From Candidatus Falkowbacteria bacterium RIFOXYA2_FULL_47_19 (GTDB taxonomy: Bacteria; Patescibacteriota; Patescibacteriia; Patescibacteriales; UBA12075): a stretch of 64,000 bases of DNA. A program made the position numbers and the translations under genes. How positions within the stretch are numbered: the stretch's first letter is position 1; every line of letters begins with the position of its first letter. The stretch spans positions 69,375 through 133,374 of the forward strand of contig MFGB01000023.1 of the NCBI GenBank assembly GCA_001780275.1. Reading direction: 5' to 3'. The notes under the pieces are model-generated. The model was not told the DNA's origin, searched no databases, and saw only the letters and a list, made by a program, of their open reading frames with translations. This document shows, piece by piece, positions 1 through 63,251 of the stretch.

Positions 1-3000
1 TTACCATTTTTATCAATCGGAATTACAATTTTTATATCTTTAATAATATTTACCGTAATTCTTTTGTTTTGCTCTCCACGCGCATATTGCTTAAGATTTT
101 CTTTTAAAAAAGAATAAACAAAATCTAAAGAAATATTTTTTATAGATTTTTTAGGGATCAACGCACCACAATGCGTAGTCATGCTAAATTTATTTCTCCT
201 TAAAAAAACTGTCCCTGCATGCACGCCGTCAGTTGTCCAGGTTATACAATTACAATCATAATCATATGTATTTATATTTCCTATTATTCCTTCGTCAACA
301 GTTTGCGAGGAATAAAGAGGATATTGGCCTCCATTATTTTGTATATATTTATTTGTATATTTTGATTTTCCTTTTTCAATATCAAATATATCTTTGATGC
401 GTTCTGTCTTATTGTTTCCTGAAGGAGCTTTTATTTCTATATTTAAATCATTAATTTTTTTCTTATATTCTTCGATCCGTGCTTTTGTTTCCTCTACAAA
501 TACTAGCTTTTCAACTATTTGATTTTGAGAAATTATATCAATTTCACCATACGTATCAACAGGAAAATCAATTTCAATATCAGCCAACATCGAAGGATAA
601 ACTTTTGTAAATTCATCCTCGCCATTTTCTCCCTTACGACCTTTTGCCAAATTTCTTAAAATAGGTTCTAGCTTATGCTTAACATATTTTATATTGATAT
701 TATCTTTTTTTGGTTTTAACAGTCCTCTATCACCATTTATTGAAAATTTTCCTGAAATTATTTTTATATACCCAGCAAAACCGTTCGTTGCCCAAGTAAG
801 AAATTCGCCATCAAAGTCATAAGCATTAATATGTGTTAATGGGGCATTATTAGAAGCAGAATAAACTGCGAATTTACCCTTATTTTTATCCCCATATTTC
901 TTTGTGTATTTTGAGAGGCCTTTTTCAATATCAAATAATTCTTTGAGCAAAAAAGGTTTATTATTTATTTTAGTCTTTTTTTTTTCTGAAATTTCCTTTA
1001 TTTCATCTTGAAATTCTTTAATTGAATTTCCAACATCACTGATTATTGAAGCAAACTCTAAAAGCGTTACCTTTTCTTTCTTTTCTCTTATACCAATTTC
1101 AATTTTTTCTTTTTCTGTCCACCAATTATCAATTATCCAACTTTCTTCAATATTATCAGTAAATTTACTTAGAGGTTGCAATTTACATCTTTTGTCAGTA
1201 TTAATTTTTTCAAACCCCTTTTTATTTCCTTTAAAAAATGAGTACAAAGCAACAGCTTCCTGCAGATCATTCTGATCAATATCAAAGCGGTAAATATTTC
1301 TCGATTCCCCTATCTCGCTTACTAAATACGTAAATATTGGATCTTTTTGAAAATCTTTTTTATCAATTTTTTTTGTAATAGCTAAAATGTATGTCTTTTT
1401 ATTAGTTGTAAAAAAGGTATTTAACGGCAAAGAAATTATTCCATCAATATAACACTCGTCTAAAATAAACTCTCTTAAATTTCTATCGTTTTGACGATTT
1501 AAGATTCCGTCTGGAATAACTACAAATGCCTTCCCTCCTGGTTTAAGGGCACGTATTACCCACTCCATAAAAAGCCCTTCTACCCCCATGGCATTTACTT
1601 TATAGTAATTGATTAAATCGCCGTCTTTTTTGATTTCATCCTTTAAATTACCGCTTCCACTCGTAACATATGGGGGGTTAGTTAGAATTAAATCATATTC
1701 ATTTTCTACAGGATCAGATAATGTTCCCAGAATGGAATTTGTTTTTAATGTAAAACTATCATTAAACAGTTTTGCAAATTCTTTCGTATATGTAGGGTTA
1801 TCTTTAATCAAATCAGAAAAATAAATTAACATATTTGCTTTTGCTAATATGATTGTCTTTTGTTCATCCTTGTCAAAACCTTTATCAAAACCATGAATAA
1901 TAATTTTGGGAGTAATCCCATTTTTATTAATTTTATAAAATTCATCCAGCCTTGTAACTAATGGCTCAAGAAGAAATTTGCCAACACCACAAGCAGGATC
2001 ACAAATTTTTATCCCTTCTTTAATATTGTCTTTCGCCATTTCTATAATTGGCCGAATTACTTTCAACGGAGTAAAAAACTGTCCCCAATTTTTTTTACTA
2101 ATACTTTCTTTTAAGAAGCTTTCAAAAAGCTGACTTTTAAAGTCATAGTCTATATGTTCCAATTTTCCATATTTGTTAAATTTATCTAAAACGGTTTTGA
2201 ATGTTGTACTATAACCCTTTACTGCTTTCTGGTCTTTGCTTACAAAAATTGTACCATTGATAATTGTTGTCTTATCATCTATATTTTGTGGAAACAATTC
2301 TTTAATTTTTGGACGAACGGTGTTTGCATAATACTCTAAAACAAACCCCTGATCTCTTTTGTCATATAGATTCATCAAATACTCAAAATTTTCAGGCTCT
2401 TGTAGTACTTCAAGGTCACTAAGATACTTAAAAATAAATAACTCAACAAAAGTATAAAGACAATTTTCAGGGGTAGCACCACTTACCGACCAAATGTCTT
2501 GCCAAATACTTTTTGCTAAATTAGTTGGGTTTATTAATTTTTTGGGCTTAATATTATCATTTTGCTCATTAATTGATTCGTTAATCTTTTGAATCATTTC
2601 TGCTAACTTATCGTCTTTAGGATCAAACAAATATTTTATTTCTTTTCCCTCTTCGTCTTTAATTCTATTATTTGTTAGAGCATTAACCCACACGGATTCT
2701 TTTGTGTCTGTTGCAATAAATATTTTGGCTCCAAGTTTTTTTGCTACTTCAATTTCTTGTTTTATAGCTTTATTTTTCTGAGCTTCTGTTTTGAATTCCT
2801 GAGGAGTCTTATACTCAATAACTGCAATAACTTGTTTTTTTTGTATTACAAGCGCGTCTGGTTTTTTCTTTTCTAAAATACCATAATCAGTATCACGAAT
2901 TTTTTTATATCTTTTTAAGGCCTTTACAGTCGTAGCGCCTATATTATAAAAATCCCACTTTCCGATTTTAGGTGGGTTTTCAACAAGATCTTTTTGTAAT

Positions 3001-3013
3001 AATTCTTCGCTCA
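1..3013 (-). CDS. Single-chain type IIB/IIG restriction-modification-specificity fusion (PD-(D/E)XK nuclease + gamma-class N6-adenine methyltransferase + two HsdS-like target recognition domains); C-terminus runs off the window start
   Basis: Absent from the ORF track because there is no stop in the window. My minus-strand translation from the ATG at 3011-3013 stays open for >1000 codons (MSEELLQKDLVENPPKIGKWDF...). Motifs in order: KPDALVIQKKQVIAVIEYK (PD...ExK); ICDPACGVGKFLLEP (AdoMet motif I); LILTNPPYV (NPPY motif IV); then two paralogous TRD starts, LFDIEKGLSKYTKKYG and IFDIEKGKSKYTNKYI, separated by a charged helical spacer. This architecture matches AloI/PpiI/TstI-type enzymes. Confidence 0.8.
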
Positions 3014-3083
3014 TAATAATATCATTATTTTTTGCTTATTTCTGCCAATTTTTCAGTATTTTTTTTACTGTGTATAACAGTAA

Positions 3084-3138
3084 TATTATACCATAGAAAA
3101 TATATGAAAGCCAACTTGGGGGTGCGTATTATACCATA
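3084..3138 (-). promoter_or_regulatory. Two copies of a 12-bp direct repeat that read TGGTATAAT (extended -10 like) on the minus strand, upstream of the RM gene
   Basis: tattataccata occurs at 3084-3095 and 3127-3138. The reverse complement TATGGTATAATA contains TGnTATAAT. The nearer copy is ~70-80 nt upstream of the RM ATG. Confidence 0.35.
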
Positions 3139-3348
3139 AAACCTCTTTTTTTAAAATTATTTTATCCACACTTTCTTTTCCTCGGTAAAAAATGTATAAT
3201 TAAAAATATGTTAATGTCAAATAAAGCTACCTATGAAATCAATTTGTTTAATAAAAACAAAAATAAAATTACATGTTTATTCAATACCGAAAACTTAAAA
3301 TCATTGGAGTAAGAGCCGGTTTTATTGTCAACAAAGTTATATATTAAG

Positions 3349-6995: not shown

Positions 6996-7245
6996 ATTTA
7001 TGCTAAATTTTATCGAAAAAATCTTGATTGCCATTTTCTCGCTTCTGCCGGACGCCGATCCGGAAAATAACGTGCTGGCTATGGTCGCAAGCGCGATTGA
7101 AACGGTCAAGCCCTCTTTCTACAACATCGATCTGATCTTTCCGATCTTGACTTTGTTTAAAATATTAATGCTTGCCATTTTTGTTGAAGCCACGATCTTC
7201 CTGATTACTCTGGTCATCAAAGTGGCGGTATTTTTCCGAGGATGA
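6979..7245 (+). CDS. Small polytopic membrane protein (g6p-like, or membrane partner of the ATPase)
   Basis: 88 aa with two hydrophobic segments. It overlaps the previous ORF, and its stop overlaps the ATPase start (ATGA at 7242-7245). Confidence 0.4.
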   Translation: MKATNKFMLNFIEKILIAIFSLLPDADPENNVLAMVASAIETVKPSFYNIDLIFPILTLFKILMLAIFVEATIFLITLVIKVAVFFRG

Positions 7246-7967
7246 TAACTATAATAACCGGCAAGCCGGGAGCGGGCAAAACTTTATTTCTGACATACCA
7301 GGCCTTTGAGATGTTAAAGCGGGGCTATGACGTTTACGCCAATTGGAAACTTGATTTTAACACCTACATCGAAAAGAAGAAACTGAACACGGACAAATTC
7401 GGACAAGTCTATTTCTGGTCGGAGATCGCCGAACTTCTGCACATCAAGGGCGGACAGATATTCATTGACGAAGCACAAGGCTATTTCGATTCCCGCGAAT
7501 GGCAGGAAATGCCCCCGAGCGCAAAGCAGAAATTTTCCGCCCACAGGCACGACGTCAGAAAGGACGAAGACGGCACGATCATTCCTTTAGACATTTGGGC
7601 GGGCGTTCAGCACACCTCAAACATCGACAAGCGGATCCGAGATTTGGGACAGCACTTTGCCGAAATACGCAATATCTGGAAAAAAGTATTCATGATTTCC
7701 TACTTTGAGTTAAAGGATTTAAAGGACGATATGGTCAGCCGGAAAGCCGTAAAAAGAAGATTGTTTTTATTCAGCAAGGCAAAAGCCGAGTGCTACAACA
7801 CGCACGAAGCCGTCAATTTCATCGAATATCCGGAATTCCCGTATCATCGGGAATATGAAAACCGGTTTTCAAACAACAATACCGGCCTGATTCCCGACTC
7901 TCCGGATATTCCGCCCTTTTCCCGCAAGTCCCTTGGCGAATACAAAAAAAGGGAGCGAACCCGGTAA
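7242..7967 (+). CDS. Zot / pI-like filamentous-phage assembly ATPase
   Basis: N-terminus MITIITGKPGAGKTLFLTYQAFEMLKRGYDVYAN carries a Walker A motif in the position typical of the Zot family. Walker B is IFIDEAQ. I see no TM segment within this ORF. Confidence 0.8.
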   Translation: MITIITGKPGAGKTLFLTYQAFEMLKRGYDVYANWKLDFNTYIEKKKLNTDKFGQVYFWSEIAELLHIKGGQIFIDEAQGYFDSREWQEMPPSAKQKFSAHRHDVRKDEDGTIIPLDIWAGVQHTSNIDKRIRDLGQHFAEIRNIWKKVFMISYFELKDLKDDMVSRKAVKRRLFLFSKAKAECYNTHEAVNFIEYPEFPYHREYENRFSNNNTGLIPDSPDIPPFSRKSLGEYKKRERTR

Positions 7968-7987
7968 GGCTCGCTCCCTTGATTTGT

Positions 7988-8278
7988 TTATTCGGTCGCA
8001 ATGACCTGCACGTCGAAGAAAAGGTTGATCGTTTTGGGAAATTTTTTCACGACCTCGCCGTTCTTGTCCTTCTTCTCGATTACGACGAAAGACTTGATGG
8101 CTTTTTCGCCCGATTTGACCCGGTAGCCGATCTTGTTCCACTGCCTGATAGTCATGCAGTTGATCTTCGGGTCGTAACGGTTGGCTTCGTCCGAACCCCA
8201 CCGCTCCTTGATCTGTTTGCGAACCAGTGTTTCGGTTGTTTCCGAACCGGTCCAGTTTGTAGTGATTTTCTTTTCCAT
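7988..8278 (-). CDS. Small protein, possible ArdC-N-like ssDNA-binding domain
   Basis: MTIRQWNKIGYRVKSGEKAIKSFVV resembles the ArdC N-terminal pattern (Q..lG..VkKGEk). It is the only minus-strand gene in the element. Assigned by motif memory only. Confidence 0.3.
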   Translation of the reverse strand: MEKKITTNWTGSETTETLVRKQIKERWGSDEANRYDPKINCMTIRQWNKIGYRVKSGEKAIKSFVVIEKKDKNGEVVKKFPKTINLFFDVQVIATE

Positions 8279-8500
8279 AAGAATAAATCACGGCCGATTT
8301 TTTAAAAACCGATCTGGCAAGGCCGTTTGTTGCCACATCAGGATATGGCCTACATAGCGTCTGATAGCTTGCCTTAGTCAAGGTGGAGACTTGTACTACC
8401 TTGATAAAGGAAAAGCTGACGCTAAAATGGACTACCCTGATGAAGTCAAAAACGCCTCCGCTTCGGCTTATTCCTTGTCTTTTAAATTTCTTTCGTGCGG

Positions 8501-8550
8501 GCAAATATTTTGGCGGACGAGTCTGCCCGACCGGCCGCCAAAATATTTGC
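8501..8550. repeat. Perfect 16-bp inverted repeat with an 18-nt spacer in the 360-bp non-coding region upstream of Rep (origin candidate)
   Basis: gcaaatattttggcgg (8501-8516) pairs with ccgccaaaatatttgc (8535-8550). Confidence 0.8.
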
Positions 8551-8641
8551 AAACAGGATTTCAAGGCAAAGTAAATCCGCGGGCGGATTGCTTCTCTTAA
8601 CTTGATTATATTCACACATCTAACGAAAACAATCATCGTTT

Positions 8642-9442
8642 ATGGCTTATACCTACGACTTCAAGGTCGTGGTTTCCGGCAAGCAAGTGGAAGTGTTTAA
8701 GTACAAGAAAAATATTTGGCGCGAATATGACAGCCCAAAGGACGAGCAGGTAAAAAAGCCAAAACAATTAAATATATTCGAACAACAAAAATTAAAAGAA
8801 CAGCAAATTAAGTCTTCTATAAACCGGACAAAAACTGAACTACGCAGGTTGATCAATTCAAATCCGGGTTTAAACAAATTTATGACTCTCACTTTTGCCA
8901 AATCCACGACTGACATCGCGCAAGCGAATTACATCTTTAATCAGTTCATCAAACGGATATCTTACCGATATCCGGATTTTCAGTATATTGCCGTTCCGGA
9001 ATTTCAAAAGGACACGGATTTTTACGGGCGCAAAAAGGAAAATGGCGGATCGGTTCATTATCATCTGCTTTGTAATCTGCCTTATATCGAAATGAGCGCT
9101 TTGGAATGGCTCTGGGGGCAAGGCATGGTAAACATCCGGGAAACCGGCCAGGTCAACAACCTGGGGGCGTATATGTGCAAATACCTGGGCAAGGAATTGT
9201 TTACCGGCCGGATGTTCGGTAAGAAAAAATATTTCCGATCGCAAAGCCTGTCCGAATCGGTCGAACTGATCGGCTGGTACGCGATGAAATTCGTGGAAAA
9301 ATTTTTGTCCTTGATTTCGCCGGTGTTCGAAAAAACTTTTTATTCCGAATGGGTCGGCATGGTCGATTACAAGGCTTTTACGCTGGGGTTTGTGCCGTTT
9401 AAAAACGGCTATGAGCGGTCGATAATTTTTAATTCAGCCTGA
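8642..9442 (+). CDS. Rolling-circle replication initiator (HUH endonuclease superfamily)
   Basis: Motif 1 is FMTLTF, motif 2 is VHYHLLC (HUH), and motif 3 is GAYMCKYLGKE (catalytic Tyr). Confidence 0.8.
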   Translation: MAYTYDFKVVVSGKQVEVFKYKKNIWREYDSPKDEQVKKPKQLNIFEQQKLKEQQIKSSINRTKTELRRLINSNPGLNKFMTLTFAKSTTDIAQANYIFNQFIKRISYRYPDFQYIAVPEFQKDTDFYGRKKENGGSVHYHLLCNLPYIEMSALEWLWGQGMVNIRETGQVNNLGAYMCKYLGKELFTGRMFGKKKYFRSQSLSESVELIGWYAMKFVEKFLSLISPVFEKTFYSEWVGMVDYKAFTLGFVPFKNGYERSIIFNSA

Positions 9443-9612
9443 TGAAATTCACCAAAGAACAATTAAACGGTTTTATCGCCTTATACCAAAATGAATTCGG
9501 CGAAAAACTAAGTCCGGCCGAAGCGGAAAAACAAGCCTCCGCCTTGGTATCTTTGGTTAAAGCGACATATAAGCCGATGAGCAGGGAAGAGTTTAAAAAA
9601 TACGCTAATTGA
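9442..9612 (+). CDS. 56-aa hypothetical protein translationally coupled to Rep
   Basis: The ATG overlaps the Rep TGA (ctgATGa). Hand-translated: MKFTKEQLNGFIALYQNEFGEKLSPAEAEKQASALVSLVKATYKPMSREEFKKYAN. Confidence 0.4.
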   Translation: MKFTKEQLNGFIALYQNEFGEKLSPAEAEKQASALVSLVKATYKPMSREEFKKYAN

Positions 9613-9657
9613 CAATCCGTAACTTGCAAAAATGAATATTTGTGGTAGGATAATATT

Positions 9658-9761
9658 GAGACCTAACAGAATTGAATACAGCAAAAGCTTTTATCTATTT
9701 GTACCCGAAAGGGGCGGCTCCTGCCGACAAATAGGGCTTTTGCTTTATTCTGTTGGGTCTC
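9658..9761. repeat. ~104-nt nested imperfect hairpin (candidate packaging signal or complementary-strand origin)
   Basis: Three nested arm pairs: gagacctaacagaat (9658-9672) with attctgttgggtctc (9747-9761); gcaaaagc with gcttttgc; tatttgt with acaaata. Confidence 0.7.
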
Positions 9762-9780
9762 CAGGGCCGTCCCTTTTGTT

Positions 9781-10002
9781 ATGGAAAAAGAAAGAATCCA
9801 AAAACTTAAATTCCACGTAAAAAGCGAAGACTATTTCGGCACTTTGGCCACGATTTTGGATTTGTTCAGATTGGATGTTCTGGAAAAGAAATTTATTTTT
9901 GACAAAGACAAAGTCTTGAAGCAGATAGTAAAGGATTTGAAATATCTGCAAGATAATTTCGTAATCGTTAAGAAAAATGAGCGACACACAGACACAAAAT
10001 AA
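9781..10002 (+). CDS. Hypothetical 73-aa protein upstream of the integrase (RDF or regulator is possible but unsupported)
   Basis: The ORF overlaps the integrase start by 26 nt. No motif recognised. Confidence 0.35.
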   Translation: MEKERIQKLKFHVKSEDYFGTLATILDLFRLDVLEKKFIFDKDKVLKQIVKDLKYLQDNFVIVKKNERHTDTK

Positions 10003-11584
10003 ATATTTCGCTTATGTCCGCAAGTCTACCGAGGGCGAAGAACGGCAGGCGCTTTCGATTGAGAGCCAAAGGGATAAGGTGATCGAACAATTCCCCCATT
10101 TGGAAATCGTCGACACTTTGGAAGAAAGGCACTCCGCCTTTAAGCCGTACAACCGGCCCGCTTTTGAAGATATGATCCGGCGAATCAAGAAAGGCGAAGC
10201 CAACGGCATTATCGCCTGGCACCCGGACAGACTATCAAGAAACGAGATCGACGCGTCCACTCTCACCTATCTCGTGCGGACGGACGTTATCAAAGACTTA
10301 AAATTCGGATCGTACAATTTCGACAACAGCCCGGAAGGAATCATGATGTTGCAATTGGCACTTTCACAGTCGCAATATTTTTCTTCCAAACTCGGCAAGG
10401 ATGTAAAAAGAGGTTTGCAGAAAAAAATCCAAATGGGCTGGCGCCCCGGCCTGGCTCCGGAAGGTTATTTGAACATAATCGCGCAACAGCAAGGACTTAA
10501 AGAAATAAAGATCGATAAAAAACGCTTTTTCCTTTTGCGCCGGGCAATCGATAAATTTCTGACTGGCGCTTATACGGCTATGGAAGTACTGAATATCCTG
10601 AACAATGAATGGGGCTATAAGACGGTTAAACGGCGCAAGCTAGGCGGGAACGAATTATCAAAAAGCACCTGGTACAAGATTTTAACGAATCCTTTTTATG
10701 CCGGTGTAGTCGTTTTCAACGGAGTCGAAACCAAAGGCAAGCACAAGCCAATGATCACGATCAGCGAATACAACCGTATCCAGGAACTGCTCGGACTTCA
10801 TGGGGCCAAAAGACGGCCAAAGGAAAAGAATTTCATCTATTCCGGCATATTCAAGTGCGGAAACTGCGGATGTTCGATCACCGCCGAACACAAGACCAAA
10901 TTCATCAGAAGCAAGAAAAAAGTCAAAGATTACAGCTATTACCATTGCACCCGCAAAAAGAAAAACAACCCTTGCAAAGAAGGGTCGATCGAAGAAAAAA
11001 ACCTTGAAAGCCAGATCAAGAAGAACCTTAAAAAGCTGAAAATGCACCCCAAATTCCTGGAATGGGCTTTGGAGTACCTGGACGGCCAAAAAGGCCGGGA
11101 AAGGGTCGAGGAAAAGCAAATAAAGGATAACAAGGAAATGGAAGCCAAGGAACTGGAAAAGCAGATTTCCGCCCTGACAATGATGAGGGCGAAAGATTTA
11201 TTAAGCGACGAGGAGTATTTGAGCGAAAAGAAAAAATTACAGGACAAGGCCAAAAAATTGACGGAAAAAGAAGAAGACAAATTGACCGGCGATGAGCTGA
11301 TCGAGCTGACAAAGGAAAATTTCGTGTTTTCCGCTTACGCCTTAAAAGAGTTTGAAACCGGCGGAAAAGAGGGCAAAAGAGAGGTGCTTGCCAAGTTAGG
11401 TTCGAACCACGAAATAATCGACAGAAACCCTTGTATTTCAATCTATAAATGGCTTTTGCCGATCTACGAGTCCATGGAATCGTATAACGCCGAAATGGCA
11501 AGGTTAGAACCAAAGGAAACCCCGATAAACACAACACAAAAAGAGGCTTACGCCTCTCTTCGTCTACGATGGCACGGGTGGTAG
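9977..11584 (+). CDS. Large serine recombinase (integrase)
   Basis: N-terminal resolvase-type catalytic domain (YVRKSTEGEERQALSIESQRD, GIIAWHPDRLSRN). It also has a recombinase domain, a Cys-rich zinc ribbon (CGNCGCSITAEH...YYHCTRKKKNNPC) and a long charged coiled-coil. The last 15 nt overlap the 3' end of tRNA-Trp. Confidence 0.9.
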   Translation: MSDTQTQNKYFAYVRKSTEGEERQALSIESQRDKVIEQFPHLEIVDTLEERHSAFKPYNRPAFEDMIRRIKKGEANGIIAWHPDRLSRNEIDASTLTYLVRTDVIKDLKFGSYNFDNSPEGIMMLQLALSQSQYFSSKLGKDVKRGLQKKIQMGWRPGLAPEGYLNIIAQQQGLKEIKIDKKRFFLLRRAIDKFLTGAYTAMEVLNILNNEWGYKTVKRRKLGGNELSKSTWYKILTNPFYAGVVVFNGVETKGKHKPMITISEYNRIQELLGLHGAKRRPKEKNFIYSGIFKCGNCGCSITAEHKTKFIRSKKKVKDYSYYHCTRKKKNNPCKEGSIEEKNLESQIKKNLKKLKMHPKFLEWALEYLDGQKGRERVEEKQIKDNKEMEAKELEKQISALTMMRAKDLLSDEEYLSEKKKLQDKAKKLTEKEEDKLTGDELIELTKENFVFSAYALKEFETGGKEGKREVLAKLGSNHEIIDRNPCISIYKWLLPIYESMESYNAEMARLEPKETPINTTQKEAYASLRLRWHGW

Positions 11585-11643
11585 GAATCGAACCCACGCA
11601 AAGGGTTTTGGAAACCCTTGTACTACCATTATACTACACCCGC
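11570..11643 (-). tRNA. tRNA-Trp (anticodon CCA), CCA end encoded
   Basis: Hand-folded, 74 nt: acceptor GCGGGTG/CACCCGT; D-arm GTAT/GTAC; anticodon arm AGGGT-TTCCAAA-ACCCT; T-arm GTGGG-TTCGATT-CCTAC; discriminator G, then CCA. Confidence 0.9.
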
Positions 11644-11735
11644 CTACGTCCCGAAGCCTCGGGACTTCGGCGCCTGTCCGCCTTTGGAGGAGGCAATGCC
11701 CGCAAAAACCCCGTGGCAAACGGCAATATTTAAAT

Positions 11736-13812: not shown

Positions 13813-14035
13813 AAGCGATACGGCAGATTAATTTTATATTTTCATAATTAATCCGTTTTTCCCAAAATTAAACAGAGAATCCCTAAAGGCGGCGGATTCC
13901 CCGCGGCTTTTAAAAACTCTCCGGGTATTTAAATCAAACAAATCAAATATGGTCTTACAATATAATAGTAATATTAAAATAGTGTTAAAACCTGATAATC
14001 TAAAGATTAAATTTTTGAATAAATCATCCAGTAAA

Positions 14036-14064
14036 CAAAAAAACGGGAATTTCTCCCGTTTTTT
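14036..14064 (-). terminator. Rho-independent terminator after desulfoferrodoxin
   Basis: The minus strand reads ACGGGAGAAATTCCCGT followed by T7. Confidence 0.65.
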
Positions 14065-14090
14065 GCCGTTATTAGGTAAAAAATGATTGT

Positions 14091-14465
14091 TCAGACCTTC
14101 CATAATCCGTGCAAATTGCAATATTCCCTGGCCTCCGCGCTCTCCGCCTTGATCAAAAATTCCGCCACTGCCGGTTCCCCGGGTTTAAGCGTCTGCCGGT
14201 AAGACCGGCCGTCGGCTATTAATTCTATCCATTCTATGTAATGGGACGCTTCCATCGGATGCGGCACCGACCCGATCTTTACCCGGAAACCGCCCTCGAT
14301 TCTCTCGATTACCGGCACGTGCTTTTCTTCGGCCGCGTCTTCGGTATTCTCCTGCCGGAGTTTCATCGGCTGTCCGCAGCAAACAAGTTCGCCGGCTCCC
14401 GTATGGAGCACCTCAACGATATTGCCGCAAATCTCGCATTTATAGATTTGTTTTAATTGAGTCAT
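14091..14465 (-). CDS. dfx: Desulfoferrodoxin (superoxide reductase)
   Basis: N-terminal desulforedoxin motif ([14 protein letters not shown]...LVCCGQPM) plus a neelaredoxin-type C-terminal domain. Confidence 0.9.
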
Positions 14466-14468
14466 ATT

Positions 14469-14568
14469 TTAGGCGTTAGGCTCTAGGATGTTAGGCGTTA
14501 GGATGTTAGGCCTTAGGGTGTTAGGCGTTAGGATATTAGGCGTTAGGGTGTTAGGCGTTAGGATGTTA
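14469..14568. repeat. Tandem array of ~15-bp units built from TTAGG(C/A) words
   Basis: The units are gttaggcgttaggat / gttaggccttagggt / gttaggcgttaggat / attaggcgttagggt / gttaggcgttaggat. There are no unique spacers. Confidence 0.85.
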
Positions 14569-14596
14569 TAAATTCTAAAAGCCTAGAGCCAAGAGC

Positions 14597-14950
14597 TTAT
14601 ATGTTATTATAGATTAACTTATTTAATATTCTCATAACTTCATTCAATAAACCATCAACCGAACCGTAATCATTGATAGTGCGGTAATGCAATCTTTTCG
14701 CGATTTCTATTTGCGTTTCCAATTCGGATCCGGACGCATATGCGATCAATAAAAAACGTCTAAACTCCCCTTTTGCGCCCCTCATTTTACCTTCAGCGAT
14801 GTTTGATGGCAGAGACACAGCCGCTCTTCTTATTTGCGAACTTAATCCGTATTTCTCGCATTCGGGAAATTTTCCGGTCAACGCATACACGGCCACAACT
14901 AAATCCATCGATTTTTGCCATACAACCAAATCTTTGTATGTAGTACTCAT
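14597..14950 (-). CDS. Four-helix-bundle protein ('23S rRNA intervening sequence protein' family)
   Basis: Family-typical motifs are present: YKDLVVWQKSMDLVVAVYALTGKFP..EKYGLSSQIRRAAVSLPSNIAEG and ASGSELETQ. Confidence 0.85.
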   Translation of the reverse strand: MSTTYKDLVVWQKSMDLVVAVYALTGKFPECEKYGLSSQIRRAAVSLPSNIAEGKMRGAKGEFRRFLLIAYASGSELETQIEIAKRLHYRTINDYGSVDGLLNEVMRILNKLIYNNI

Positions 14951-14977
14951 AGATATCTAAAGCCTAAGGCCTAGAGC

Positions 14978-15559
14978 CTAATAAACTTCCGCCTTCACCT
15001 GATAATATCCCTGAGGGTGGCCGCAGGCCGGACAGGCCGCGGGCGCGGATTTGCCACGGTGCTCGTAACCACACTGACGGCAGACCCAGACCGTTTCCTC
15101 ATCCTTCTGAAAAAGCGTTCCGCTTTCGAATTCGGCTAAAAGCTTTTTATAACGCTCTTCGTGGTGGGCCTCCGCCCGGGCGATCGAGCGCAGGCGGCCG
15201 GCGATCTCCGGCAGATTCTCCTTATTCGCTTCGTCAGCGAAATCCGGGTACATTTTCGTGTATTCGTGGTTTTCTCCCGCAATCGCCGCTCTGAGATTTT
15301 CCGCTGTCGTTCCGATCACGGTCGGCACTTCGGCCTCAACCTTGATATCGGCTTTTTTCCCATTTTGCTCTTCGAGTCCGTTGATCAGGCGCATGAGCCA
15401 TTTGGCGTGCTCCCGCTCCTGCTCGGCGGTTTCCAATAAAACAGCCGAAATCTGCTCATAACCTTCCTTTTTGGCGATCTTAGCATAGATCGTGTAACGA
15501 TTCCTGGCCATCGATTCGCCGATAAAAGCCTTCGCCAGATTGTTGATGGTATTTTGCAT
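14978..15559 (-). CDS. rbr: Rubrerythrin
   Basis: A ferritin-like di-iron domain (ARNRYTIYA...EQEREHAKW...AEAHHEERY) plus a C-terminal rubredoxin motif (CRQCG...CPACG). Confidence 0.9.
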   Translation of the reverse strand: MQNTINNLAKAFIGESMARNRYTIYAKIAKKEGYEQISAVLLETAEQEREHAKWLMRLINGLEEQNGKKADIKVEAEVPTVIGTTAENLRAAIAGENHEYTKMYPDFADEANKENLPEIAGRLRSIARAEAHHEERYKKLLAEFESGTLFQKDEETVWVCRQCGYEHRGKSAPAACPACGHPQGYYQVKAEVY

Positions 15560-15711
15560 ATTTTTTGATACGCTTAATATTAATATAAAAACAAAAATTA
15601 AAATTAATTTAAAATCGGACCAATCCCGGACATCTTCAAATCACCCTCCTTAAAACTTGAAGATGACCCCTGTTTATATCTGTCATTATAACAGACTGAA
15701 TAAATTTTATC

Positions 15712-17849: not shown

Positions 17850-17910
17850 AATTTTTGCGATTCTAATTAAACGCCTAAAGCCTAAAAACAGCATATCACT
17901 TTTCCCAAAA

Positions 17911-26442: not shown

Positions 26443-26518
26443 GCCTGCCCCGTGATCCCGACGCTTCGGGATTTTACGGTGCCTGCCCCGTGATCCCGAC
26501 GCTTCGGGATTTTACGGG
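26443..26518. repeat. Two tandem 38-bp copies of a nested hairpin, starting 1 nt after the nadD-nadK stop
   Basis: The unit is gcctgccccgtgatcccgacgcttcgggattttacgg(t/g), at 26443-26480 and 26481-26518. The two copies are identical except for the last base. On the minus strand the first copy folds CCCCGU-AAA-AUCCCGA-AGCG-UCGGGAU-C-ACGGGG; in the second copy the outer stem is shorter (CCGU with ACGG). Confidence 0.9.
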
Positions 26519-62689: not shown

Positions 62690-63178
62690 TTATTCAACTA
62701 AATTTCGAAATCCGGCGATCACGAAATCAGCGGCCTCGACTAATCTCTGGATCCGAGAGGCGCCGGGCCCGGGAACGCCGATCACTTTCGGCAGGGTGTC
62801 TGATATTCCGCCAACGATAGTGTCCAGCCCCACAGTGGGCATGACCCCGCCGCCTTTATACACAAATCCCTGCATGGGGCAAATTTTCGTACCACCCCTC
62901 TGGCCGGTAAACTGGATTTCGGAATAGTCCGCGCAAACATAATTTCCCGTCACTGGTCCGCATTGAGGACAATTCTTGCAGACACCGTCCGGAGGCGTTG
63001 AAACGCAAACCGGCTGATACATCGTTACTCGTCCGCCATCCTGCCAGGGCAGAGCGGACAGGGCCTCGGCCGTGTTCCGGAATTCCAGATAATTTCTTAT
63101 ATCCAGACCCAGAAAGGCCGCGCCACAAAACAAAATAATTCCGCCAATCATTAAAATTTTCTTTTTTTTATTCAACAT
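62690..63178 (-). CDS. Secreted or anchored Cys-rich hypothetical protein
   Basis: An N-terminal TM segment (ILMIGGIILFCGAAFLGL) and multiple Cys residues (CVSTPPDGVCKNCPQCGP..YVC). Confidence 0.5.
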   Translation of the reverse strand: MLNKKKKILMIGGIILFCGAAFLGLDIRNYLEFRNTAEALSALPWQDGGRVTMYQPVCVSTPPDGVCKNCPQCGPVTGNYVCADYSEIQFTGQRGGTKICPMQGFVYKGGGVMPTVGLDTIVGGISDTLPKVIGVPGPGASRIQRLVEAADFVIAGFRNLVE

Positions 63179-63251
63179 ACTAAAAAATCCTAAAACCTAA
63201 AGCCTAATAACATTATAGCAAAAACCGAACAAAATTGGTATAATAAAAACA

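Follow-up and report, generated by a model that had tools for sequence, protein, structure and literature searches.

Our analysis of a 64,000-nucleotide stretch from Candidatus Falkowbacteria bacterium RIFOXYA2_FULL_47_19 (contig MFGB01000023.1; hereafter the window) concerns a gene for a four-helix-bundle (4HB) protein that lies between the genes for rubrerythrin (rbr) and desulfoferrodoxin (dfx). We think it probable that this gene is the cargo of an intervening sequence (IVS)-type cassette residing in an mRNA, in which the 4HB gene is bracketed by inverted arms of degenerate 7-nt repeats that extend from the rbr stop codon to the dfx start codon. The inverted-arm layout recurs around 4HB family genes in five bacterial phyla, and it may link the 4HB family to long-unexplained 7-base repeats. 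The features of the locus are listed here in the order of transcription, with ORF denoting an open reading frame.

15559..14978, minus strand: rbr, the rubrerythrin gene (193 aa), upstream neighbor of 4HB; ORF, NF045767 233.8 bits (cutoff 200), PF02915.
14957-14981, minus strand: 5′ arm, reading TTAGGCT CTAGGCC TTAGGCT TTAG on the gene strand (sense NTAGGCN heptamers); period 7 in the tandem-repeat scan, also in the inverted-repeat listing.
14950..14597, minus strand: 4HB, the cargo gene of the cassette (117 aa); ORF, PF05635 and TIGR02436.
14575..14599, minus strand: short sense repeat GGCTCTAGGCTTTTAG 3′ of the 4HB stop, from the inverted- and direct-repeat listing; a 9-nt spacer then precedes the 3′ arm.
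14469-14568, minus strand: 3′ arm, about 13 antisense heptamer-type units (GCCTAAC / ATCCTAAC); 15-nt double unit, 6.3 copies.
14465..14091, minus strand: dfx, the desulfoferrodoxin gene (124 aa), downstream neighbor of 4HB; ORF, TIGR00320 204.2 bits.

Together the two arrays make up a single inverted, stem-like structure as its 5′ and 3′ arms, and with the gene between them they fill the whole spacer from the rbr stop to the dfx start (14466-14977, 512 nt). An earlier note on this DNA had described the 4HB gene as separating dfx from rbr, with a tandem array of TTAGGCG/TTAGGAT units of about 100 bp to its left. The ORFs and profile scores bear out the first point, and Tandem Repeats Finder (TRF) recovers the array at 14475-14568, with a period of 15 (7+8), the unit GTTAGGCGTTAGGAT, 6.3 copies and 87% matches. 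Its score of 146 ranks second among the 50 TRF rows for the window, behind a 38-nt duplication (150). The 12-nt inverted pair of the note is indeed perfect, TTAGGCTCTAGG (14476-14487) against CCTAGAGCCTAA (14970-14981), and gcctagagcc is found at 14581-14590 as described.

The arms are fitted closely to the coding sequences on either side. The rbr stop codon (14978-14980; CTA on the plus strand, TAG on the gene strand) falls within CCTAGAGCCTAA. On the gene strand, the sequence 5′ of the 4HB start reads TAT-TAG-GCTCTAGGCCTTAGGCTTTAGATATCT-ATG, where the first heptamer supplies the rbr TAG stop, and the 5′ arm ends about 6 nt short of the 4HB ATG. The TTAGGCN units place a TAG every 7 nt, which gives stops in all three frames. 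The 3′ arm reads CATCCTAAC GCCTAAC ... on the same strand and terminates as GCCTAAAAT-ATG at dfx, 4 nt from the ATG. The dfx start thus directly follows the 3′ arm, and there is no room for a Shine-Dalgarno sequence.

The repeat pattern at this locus exceeds chance. The word CCTAGAGCC occurs three times in 64 kb, each time at the cassette, where 0.23 occurrences are expected; at least three were seen in 0 of 100 shuffles. With up to two mismatches allowed, TTAGGCGTTAGG has 15 matches, 10 of them at the cassette (5.06 expected; at least 15 in 0 of 100 shuffles). By our own estimate, about 0.09 inverted matches of 12 nt are expected in 1.7 kb, and one such match alone would be borderline; what carries weight is the arrays and their conservation in relatives. 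Heptamer arrays are otherwise almost absent from the window, apart from two one-armed runs, and tblastn found no other 4HB copy in its 64 kb.

The 4HB protein scores above the cutoffs of both family profiles (124.5 bits against 33.8 for PF05635; 117.3 bits against 24 for TIGR02436), which places it in the ‘23S rRNA intervening sequence protein’ (23S_rRNA_IVP) family, and it matches PDB entry 2gsc (Xcc0516) with E=1.6e-24. The closest protein matches are from Candidatus Falkowbacteria (Candidate Phyla Radiation (CPR)/Patescibacteria) in Rifle aquifer metagenomes. The locus shares two further features with the IVSs of this family: the ORF is bracketed by a complementary terminal stem, seen in the 12-nt pair with its flanking heptamers and in the folds, and tandem heptamers of variable copy number lie beside the ORF. 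When a 541-nt transcript is folded, the minimum free energy and centroid structures both close the 4HB ORF through pairing of the 5′ arm with the final units of the 3′ arm. A local fold (-23.1 kcal/mol, z = -2.7) can also join the short sense repeat at 14575..14599 to the long array at its promoter-distal end (14470-14494). A fourth IVS feature, insertion in helix 9, 25 or 45 of 23S rRNA, is absent, as there is no rRNA in the window and the element lies between two protein-coding genes. Rfam gave no match in the region (gathering threshold on the whole window; E ≤ 1 on 14000-15700).

Comparison with other dfx loci provides an explanation for how this spacer arose. Among 80 such loci, rbr lies upstream on the same strand in 43, with a spacer of at most 200 nt in 33, and 32 of these 33 have no 4HB gene. 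In relatives, rbr and dfx are 0-5 nt apart, and in the closest empty sites only 0-2 nt separate stop from start; the most similar of these sites read ...CEEY-TAG-AC-ATG (L114) and an overlapping TAATG (L166). Because the two genes abut at the empty sites, the entire 512-nt spacer can be taken as an insertion, and the cassette is evidently inserted between two tightly coupled genes.

Occupied sites show how the cassette behaves once in place. A related genome, GCA_043801965.1 (L007), has the same rbr-4HB-dfx locus with a 98% identical 4HB protein, and its arms have 8 units upstream of the gene and 6 downstream, compared to 3 and 13 in the window. This comparison supports the view that the arrays change length between close relatives and that the cassette is prone to recombination or slippage. 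A paralogue in the same genome (77% identity) also has TTAGGCN arms; its neighbors are a giant fn3 surface-protein gene and an ABC transporter. Scanning metagenomes with dfx yielded the closest relative (L089; rbr 91%, dfx 84%). Only the last 21 codons of its 4HB gene are left, joined directly to the upstream array; a T-arm/loop/C-arm hairpin comes next, and then dfx. In L089, rbr and dfx are intact, and a counterpart of the short sense repeat GGCTCTAGGCTTTTAG is present. To judge from its sequence, the L089 locus is a decayed cassette with an internal 4HB deletion. A distant member of the Parcubacteria (L011) shares the rbr-4HB-dfx arrangement with ATAGGCA/GTAGGCG arms, and its identity to the window is 66% for rbr, 68% for 4HB and 65% for dfx. 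Because the three genes have diverged in parallel, we regard this copy of the cassette as an old resident. The 4HB gene is under purifying selection, with dN 0.007 / dS 0.041 against L007, and dN 0.13-0.32 with saturated dS against paralogues and others.

The earlier note had proposed a small mobile or recombination-prone cassette, and part of that proposal stands. The element is inserted, the arms belong to it, and recombination or slippage is seen in the unit counts and in the L089 deletion. Active mobility is not borne out: identical copies, a target-site duplication and a transposase are all missing, and the parallel divergence is that of an old resident.

A different array occupies the same operon junction in an unrelated organism. 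On a GC-rich metagenome contig (L124, 2396-2485), the rbr-dfx spacer is filled by a one-armed array and has no 4HB gene; its units are GAACCAC x3, then GAACTAT/GAACTAC x ~10.

The arms are a property of the family and not of this locus alone. A scan of species-representative genomes gave 80 CPR homologue loci, and we analyzed 82 non-redundant copies, defining an array as at least three TAG (sense) spaced 6-8 nt apart within 100 nt upstream, or the equivalent CTA within 120 nt downstream. Upstream phased TAG arrays are present in 70 of the 82 loci and downstream CTA arrays in 48, with three and one in the opposite orientations; about 1% of background 100-nt windows contain such arrays (42 and 43 of 4006). 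The unit sequences vary from locus to locus (TTAGGCN, TTAGCTN, GTAGTTT, GTAGTGA, TTAGGAA and others), and the two arms vary together. Duplexes between a locus's own arms have an energy of -43.0 kcal/mol versus -32.2 for cross-locus pairs, and the own pair is better in 66 of 80 cases (p = 1.7e-11); the complementary run has a median of 19 nt versus 9-10 in controls. If TAG is not assumed in calling the period, 24 loci have a period of 7, three of 8 and one of 9, and all 24 period-7 units contain a sense stop codon. The strict self-similarity score called a period in just 28 of the 82 loci, as the arrays are degenerate. In 36 of 70 loci an array TAG is the stop codon of a long upstream ORF, and in 27 of these it is the first TAG; the distance from the 3′ arm to the next start codon has a median of 4 nt (at most 10 nt in 53 of 66), again leaving no room for a Shine-Dalgarno leader. 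The arms are thus mutually complementary locus by locus, and they belong to the 4HB gene, whose homologues have the same design around them in five phyla and in a true 23S IVS. The earlier note had set its cassette idea against two outcomes: that other copies would lack such flanks, and that the gene order would be conserved with no empty sites. Most copies have the flanks, and nearly all of the tight rbr-dfx pairs are empty sites.

One Doudnabacteria contig (L025) has two 4HB paralogues 1.1 kb apart (1442-1795 and 2913-3278), and their heptamers are of different families. Arms of the TTAGTTT/ATAGTAG type flank the copy with 62.5% identity to the window protein, and arms of the GCAGTAA/GCAATAA type flank the one with 44% identity, which hints that arm sequence follows the protein subfamily and not the genome.

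These surveys bear on another account of the locus, namely that 4HB is a genuine member of an oxidative-stress operon, for example a regulator or partner of rubrerythrin and desulfoferrodoxin, and that the repeats are ordinary slippage-prone intergenic repeats. In its favor, the rbr-4HB-dfx order is kept in three lineages (the window, L007 and L011), and 4HB diverges at its neighbors' rate under purifying selection. However, the same gene with its arms is found in unrelated contexts (ABC transporter, accBC, araDA, cas genes, ribonucleotide reductase (RNR), 23S rRNA), 32 of 33 tight rbr-dfx pairs do without it, and the close relative L089 has only a decayed copy of it beside intact rbr and dfx. 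The survey of contexts largely refutes this account, which we consider very improbable.

The ‘background’ arrays in CPR loci are themselves informative. Most consist of a T-arm, 8-60 nt and a C-arm, forming about 21 distinct hairpins without an ORF. On the operon strand, the stop codon of the upstream gene lies in the T-arm in 16 of 22 entries, and in 13 of 22 the next start is at most 12 nt from the C-arm. Because these ORF-free hairpins of the same repeats span stop-to-start spacers, the cassette can be described as a stop-to-start hairpin with a 4HB ORF in its loop. Ribosomal RNA IVSs also occur with and without an ORF, and the two kinds of hairpin parallel them in this respect.

The window itself contains two short one-armed TTAGG-type runs, at 17868-17886 (TTTTTAGGCTTTAGGCG, before fpg) and 63185-63207 (TTAGGCTTTAGGTTTTAGGA, before a gene starting near 63178). 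Both lie directly 5′ of minus-strand starts, have no complementary partner array and no 4HB gene, and may be remnants or half-elements.

Outside the CPR, the layout persists with other heptamers. Xanthomonas has homologues between accB and accC that share 85% identity with the crystallized Xcc0516 over the aligned region, with GGGAATC-type units upstream of 4HB and CATTCCC-type units that reach the accC ATG. The Bacteroides copies have AATTGAC / ATTGTCA arms and are found between araD and araA, and also between the genes for an aminotransferase and DAHP synthase. Azospirillum lipoferum has a 4HB copy inside the large-subunit (LSU) rRNA gene (Rfam RF02541, 910 bits) with GAGGACG/GATGACA arms, and this is a true 23S IVS. 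On cyanobacterial plasmids, the gene lies between cas6 and cas4, cas10 and cmr3, two RNR subunits, secretion genes and others. Inverted heptamer arms were present in 9 of 12 cyanobacterial loci examined, with the purine-rich arm 5′ and with units that include GTAGGGA, GGTGACA, GGAGATA, AGGGAAC, GGGTGTA, AGGGAAG, GGCAGAA and AGTCAGA.

In the araD-araA spacer of two Bacteroides strains (L188/L189, 1400-1500), a complete AATTGAC/ATTGTCA hairpin is already present 5′ of the 4HB start, besides the ATTGTCA arm downstream. Compared to L188, L189 carries additional units, and array length therefore varies between Bacteroides strains as well.

Three of the cyanobacterial copies are in cas loci: Anabaena sp. 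90 pANA02 (L171), Pseudanabaena pPg_01 (L178) and a Picosynechococcus PCC 7003 plasmid (L172). The sites are of two kinds, the cas6-cas4 spacer of type I-D and the cas10-cmr3 spacer of type III-B, and the arms are GGTGACA/CTGTCAC, AAAGCTA/AAAGCCA (direct, L178) and GGAGATA/TATCTCC. 23S_rRNA_IVP has been listed among the genes or domains of cas loci in two studies (PMC3936711; a figure legend of PMC10910872). Because the examined copies carry heptamer arms, they look like cassette insertions and not functional partners, and the published association may reflect insertion of cassettes into operon spacers. No PADLOC family of anti-phage defense matched at E ≤ 0.01.

Among known systems, the closest are the 23S rRNA IVSs (Leptospira, Coxiella, Xanthomonas-type, Azospirillum). 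They share with the cassette the PF05635/TIGR02436 family, inverted repeats that form a stem around the ORF, variable tandem heptamers 5′ of the ORF and an ORF prone to decay (Coxiella; L089 here). The Coxiella IVS has variable-number tandem GACAGAT heptamers 5′ of an ORF of the same family and a terminal stem of 28 bp, and RNase III cleaves it at the first repeat; its protein is apparently not made and its ORF is decaying, although the IVS persists (Warrier et al.; PMC4990558). Unlike these, the cassette has a protein-coding operon transcript as its host RNA, and its arms run from a stop codon to the next start codon, with the first heptamer being the stop codon. RNase III excision has been demonstrated for rRNA IVSs, whereas for the cassette it would hold by analogy.

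A second likeness is to the heptamer repeats GGGAATC of Xanthomonas and GGGGAYT of Nostoc, which Rehm et al. (2015) read as G-quadruplex formers and did not link to 4HB genes (PMC4692102). They counted 186 arrays in X. campestris, with 70 convergent pairs and overlap with stop codons (PMC4692102). Like the cassette arms, these repeats have a 7-nt unit and variable copy number, lie between co-oriented genes and often form convergent pairs; the G-rich strand stands just after a stop codon, sometimes overlapping it, or antisense just before a start. These very repeats flank the 4HB gene that lies between accB and accC in Xanthomonas. In contrast to them, the TTAGGCN units carry TAG every 7 nt. 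A G-quadruplex reading was considered for our locus and rejected, as TTAGGCG and TTAGGAT carry GG only and the criterion is at least four consecutive runs of at least three G. Cyanobacterial short tandemly repeated repetitive (STRR) heptamers were reportedly described by Mazel et al. in 1990. We found no literature report of non-rRNA 4HB genes in inverted heptamer arrays, or of Xanthomonas or Nostoc heptamers flanking them, in a search that did not extend to subscription-only papers.

The cassette also resembles repetitive extragenic palindromic (REP) elements and bacterial interspersed mosaic elements (BIMEs), REPIN palindromes and miniature inverted-repeat transposable elements (MITEs), in that all are short palindromic repeats in operon spacers, with and without cargo, in many dispersed copies. 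REP elements have been proposed to affect mRNA stability and processing. Unlike these, the cassette has tandem heptamers instead of one conserved palindrome, no REP-associated tyrosine transposase (RAYT) or other transposase partner was seen, its arms run exactly from stop to start, and it carries a conserved ORF.

The family's other known association is with diversity-generating retroelements (DGRs), whose accessory protein Avd has a homologous fold and belongs to a pentameric family, so that 4HB could in principle be an Avd gene. The protein does have weak matches to Avd profiles (PF22296 28.8 bits, NF033474 24 bits, phrog_3206 E = 4.5e-07), and PF05635 is the commonest Pfam family in a DGR-associated dataset (PMC10053308). 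Yet both curated scores are far below the cutoffs (40 bits for PF22296, 80 bits for NF033474), and no reverse transcriptase or other DGR component is found among the genes called within 10 kb on either side. In phage libraries, PHROGs gave only the weak Avd match and a phage genome collection gave none. We reject this reading on the missing reverse transcriptase and the scores under cutoff, and give it next to no weight.

For an IVS-type cassette, the host RNA would be the operon transcript. By consensus scans, rbr, 4HB and dfx form one apparent minus-strand transcription unit, with these putative boundaries.

15713-15685, minus strand: strong promoter-like site 5′ of rbr, putative start of the unit; TTGATA-17-TATAAT, 11/12 with a TG extension, from the consensus scan.
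14064-14038, minus strand: intrinsic-terminator-like hairpin and T-run after dfx, putative end of the unit, from the inverted-repeat and consensus scans.

The consensus scan between these two sites found no terminator-like site inside the cassette. In a transcript of this kind, the arms would probably pair and loop out the 4HB ORF. With the arms paired, a single helix would have at its base both the rbr stop codon, in the first 5′ heptamer, and the dfx start codon, 4 nt past the last 3′ heptamer. The rRNA IVSs of the same family suggest by analogy that the stem could be an RNase III substrate, whose cleavage would release the 4HB message. Alternatively or additionally, the geometry suggests that a ribosome terminating at an arm TAG could melt the base of the stem and hand over to the adjacent dfx start, which would preserve the tight rbr-dfx coupling seen at the empty sites. 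The arrays themselves would expand and contract by replication slippage.

Several observations weigh against an IVS-type cassette in mRNA. The rbr promoter and dfx terminator are known as consensus matches alone. The energy of the whole 541-nt fold is not unusual (z = -1.3, not significant), and for this reason our structural claim concerns the arms only. Across the CPR loci, the 5′ array is absent in 12 of 82 and a 3′ array of at least three units in 34 of 82; the arms are imperfect, with transversions as most of the mismatches and a median complementary run of 19 nt; and the duplex-span statistic is partly forced by short spacers. The arrays of L178 are direct and not inverted. The parallel divergence of rbr, 4HB and dfx shows that the cassette has long been resident, which suits a domesticated function and a selfish element equally. 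An important caveat is that the RNA and DNA levels are not separated: G.U-type and A.C-type mismatches number 31 v 27 and 10 v 6, and the duplex of the sense transcript is barely stabler than that of the antisense (48 of 80, p = 0.04).

This last point also bears on a DNA-level mobile element, a small non-autonomous transposon or a recombination cassette that would carry 4HB and have the arrays as its terminal inverted repeats. It would be mobilized in trans or through recombination of arrays from separate loci, and any RNA structure would be incidental. The inverted-repeat geometry, the presence or absence at orthologous rbr-dfx sites, the copies in many unrelated contexts and the paralogues within one genome would all follow from such an element. 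The ORF-free hairpins are possible landing pads for a double crossover, the mismatch test does not favor RNA over DNA, and the idea has been raised in the IVS literature (PMC4990558). However, the cassette contains no transposase or integrase (a trans-acting enzyme could lie outside the 64-kb window), and comparison to the empty sites shows no target-site duplication. There are no near-identical copies at different sites, the two in GCA_043801965.1 being 77% identical, and neither the sequence nor the length of the arms is fixed. A DNA-only element also predicts neither the near-invariant orientation of the ORF relative to the TAG/CTA arms (70 v 3) nor the abutment of the arms on stop and start codons. 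We judge this alternative unlikely, although it is the strongest of the competing explanations.

We hypothesize, tentatively, a broader scheme that is well short of even odds. Heptamer hairpins with or without a 4HB ORF may constitute one pan-bacterial class of stop-to-start spacer that includes the 23S rRNA IVSs, the STRR repeats and the Xanthomonas GGGAATC repeats, with the PF05635 pentamer as a trans-acting partner that binds, processes or propagates the arrays. Heptamer hairpins and PF05635 co-occur; the causal tie to the protein is our proposal. If the scheme is true, the CRISPR-Cas associations of the 4HB gene are hitch-hiking insertions.

In a narrower version, the 4HB protein and the arrays are a functional pair, the pentamer binding heptamer hairpins (RNA or DNA) genome-wide, or helping to generate or maintain them, with its own gene inside one of its targets. 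The co-occurrence across five phyla is consistent with this, as are long-term purifying selection on the protein and the fact that Xanthomonas and Nostoc, reported as heptamer-enriched (PMC4692102), carry 4HB genes flanked by those repeats. The relative Avd, to which 4HB has its weak matches, is a nucleic-acid/reverse-transcriptase cofactor (PMC10053308), and the solved family members 2gsc and 2rld have five chains per PDB entry, Xcc0516 being described as a homopentamer. Against it, the co-occurrence may reflect common descent of the cassette alone, the Coxiella IVS persists although its protein is apparently not made and its ORF is decaying (PMC4990558), and L089 retains arrays without the gene. 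The heptamer sequences also vary widely, and a sequence-specific binder would have to track them. On balance we find a functional pair improbable.

Taken together, these observations favor the IVS-type cassette in mRNA, and the consequences reach beyond this locus. For the non-DGR members of the large 4HB ‘IVS protein’ family, no function has been assigned since 1993, and catalogues have listed heptamer simple repeats (STRR, GGGAATC) from 1990 onward with no explanation. If the cassette design is general, the two are faces of one element: the repeats are its arms, and the rRNA IVS is one of its insertion sites. The design would explain how an insertion of ~500 nt can sit between tightly coupled genes and leave the operon unbroken. 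It also cautions against reading a 4HB gene in a cas, ara or acc operon as a functional association, and for CPR bacteria it points to a hairpin-based stop-to-start spacer in place of a Shine-Dalgarno leader. Three unexplained observations are possibly connected in this way, and the cultivable carriers, Xanthomonas (accB-4HB-accC) and Bacteroides (araD-4HB-araA), are open to experiment.

Two other features of the window were observed. The duplication that tops the TRF scores is a perfect 38-nt tandem repeat at 26443-26517 (GCCTGCCCCGTGATCCCGACGCTTCGGGATTTTACGGT, 2.0 copies, score 150), with a small hairpin ATCCCGACGCTTCGGGAT in each copy. Elsewhere, a large serine recombinase gene (~9977-11584) has an end that overlaps a tRNA gene (11573-11643) by ~12 nt, and beyond it lie genes for a rolling-circle Rep (REP_ORF2-G2P, ~8642-9442) and a Zot-like ATPase (~7242-7967). 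These coordinates derive from the L001 gene table (window coordinate = 24951 - L001 coordinate). The region (~7240-11650) looks like an integrated inovirus-like element at a tRNA gene, and in the L007 genome different genes follow the Bro-N gene, compared to this part of the window.

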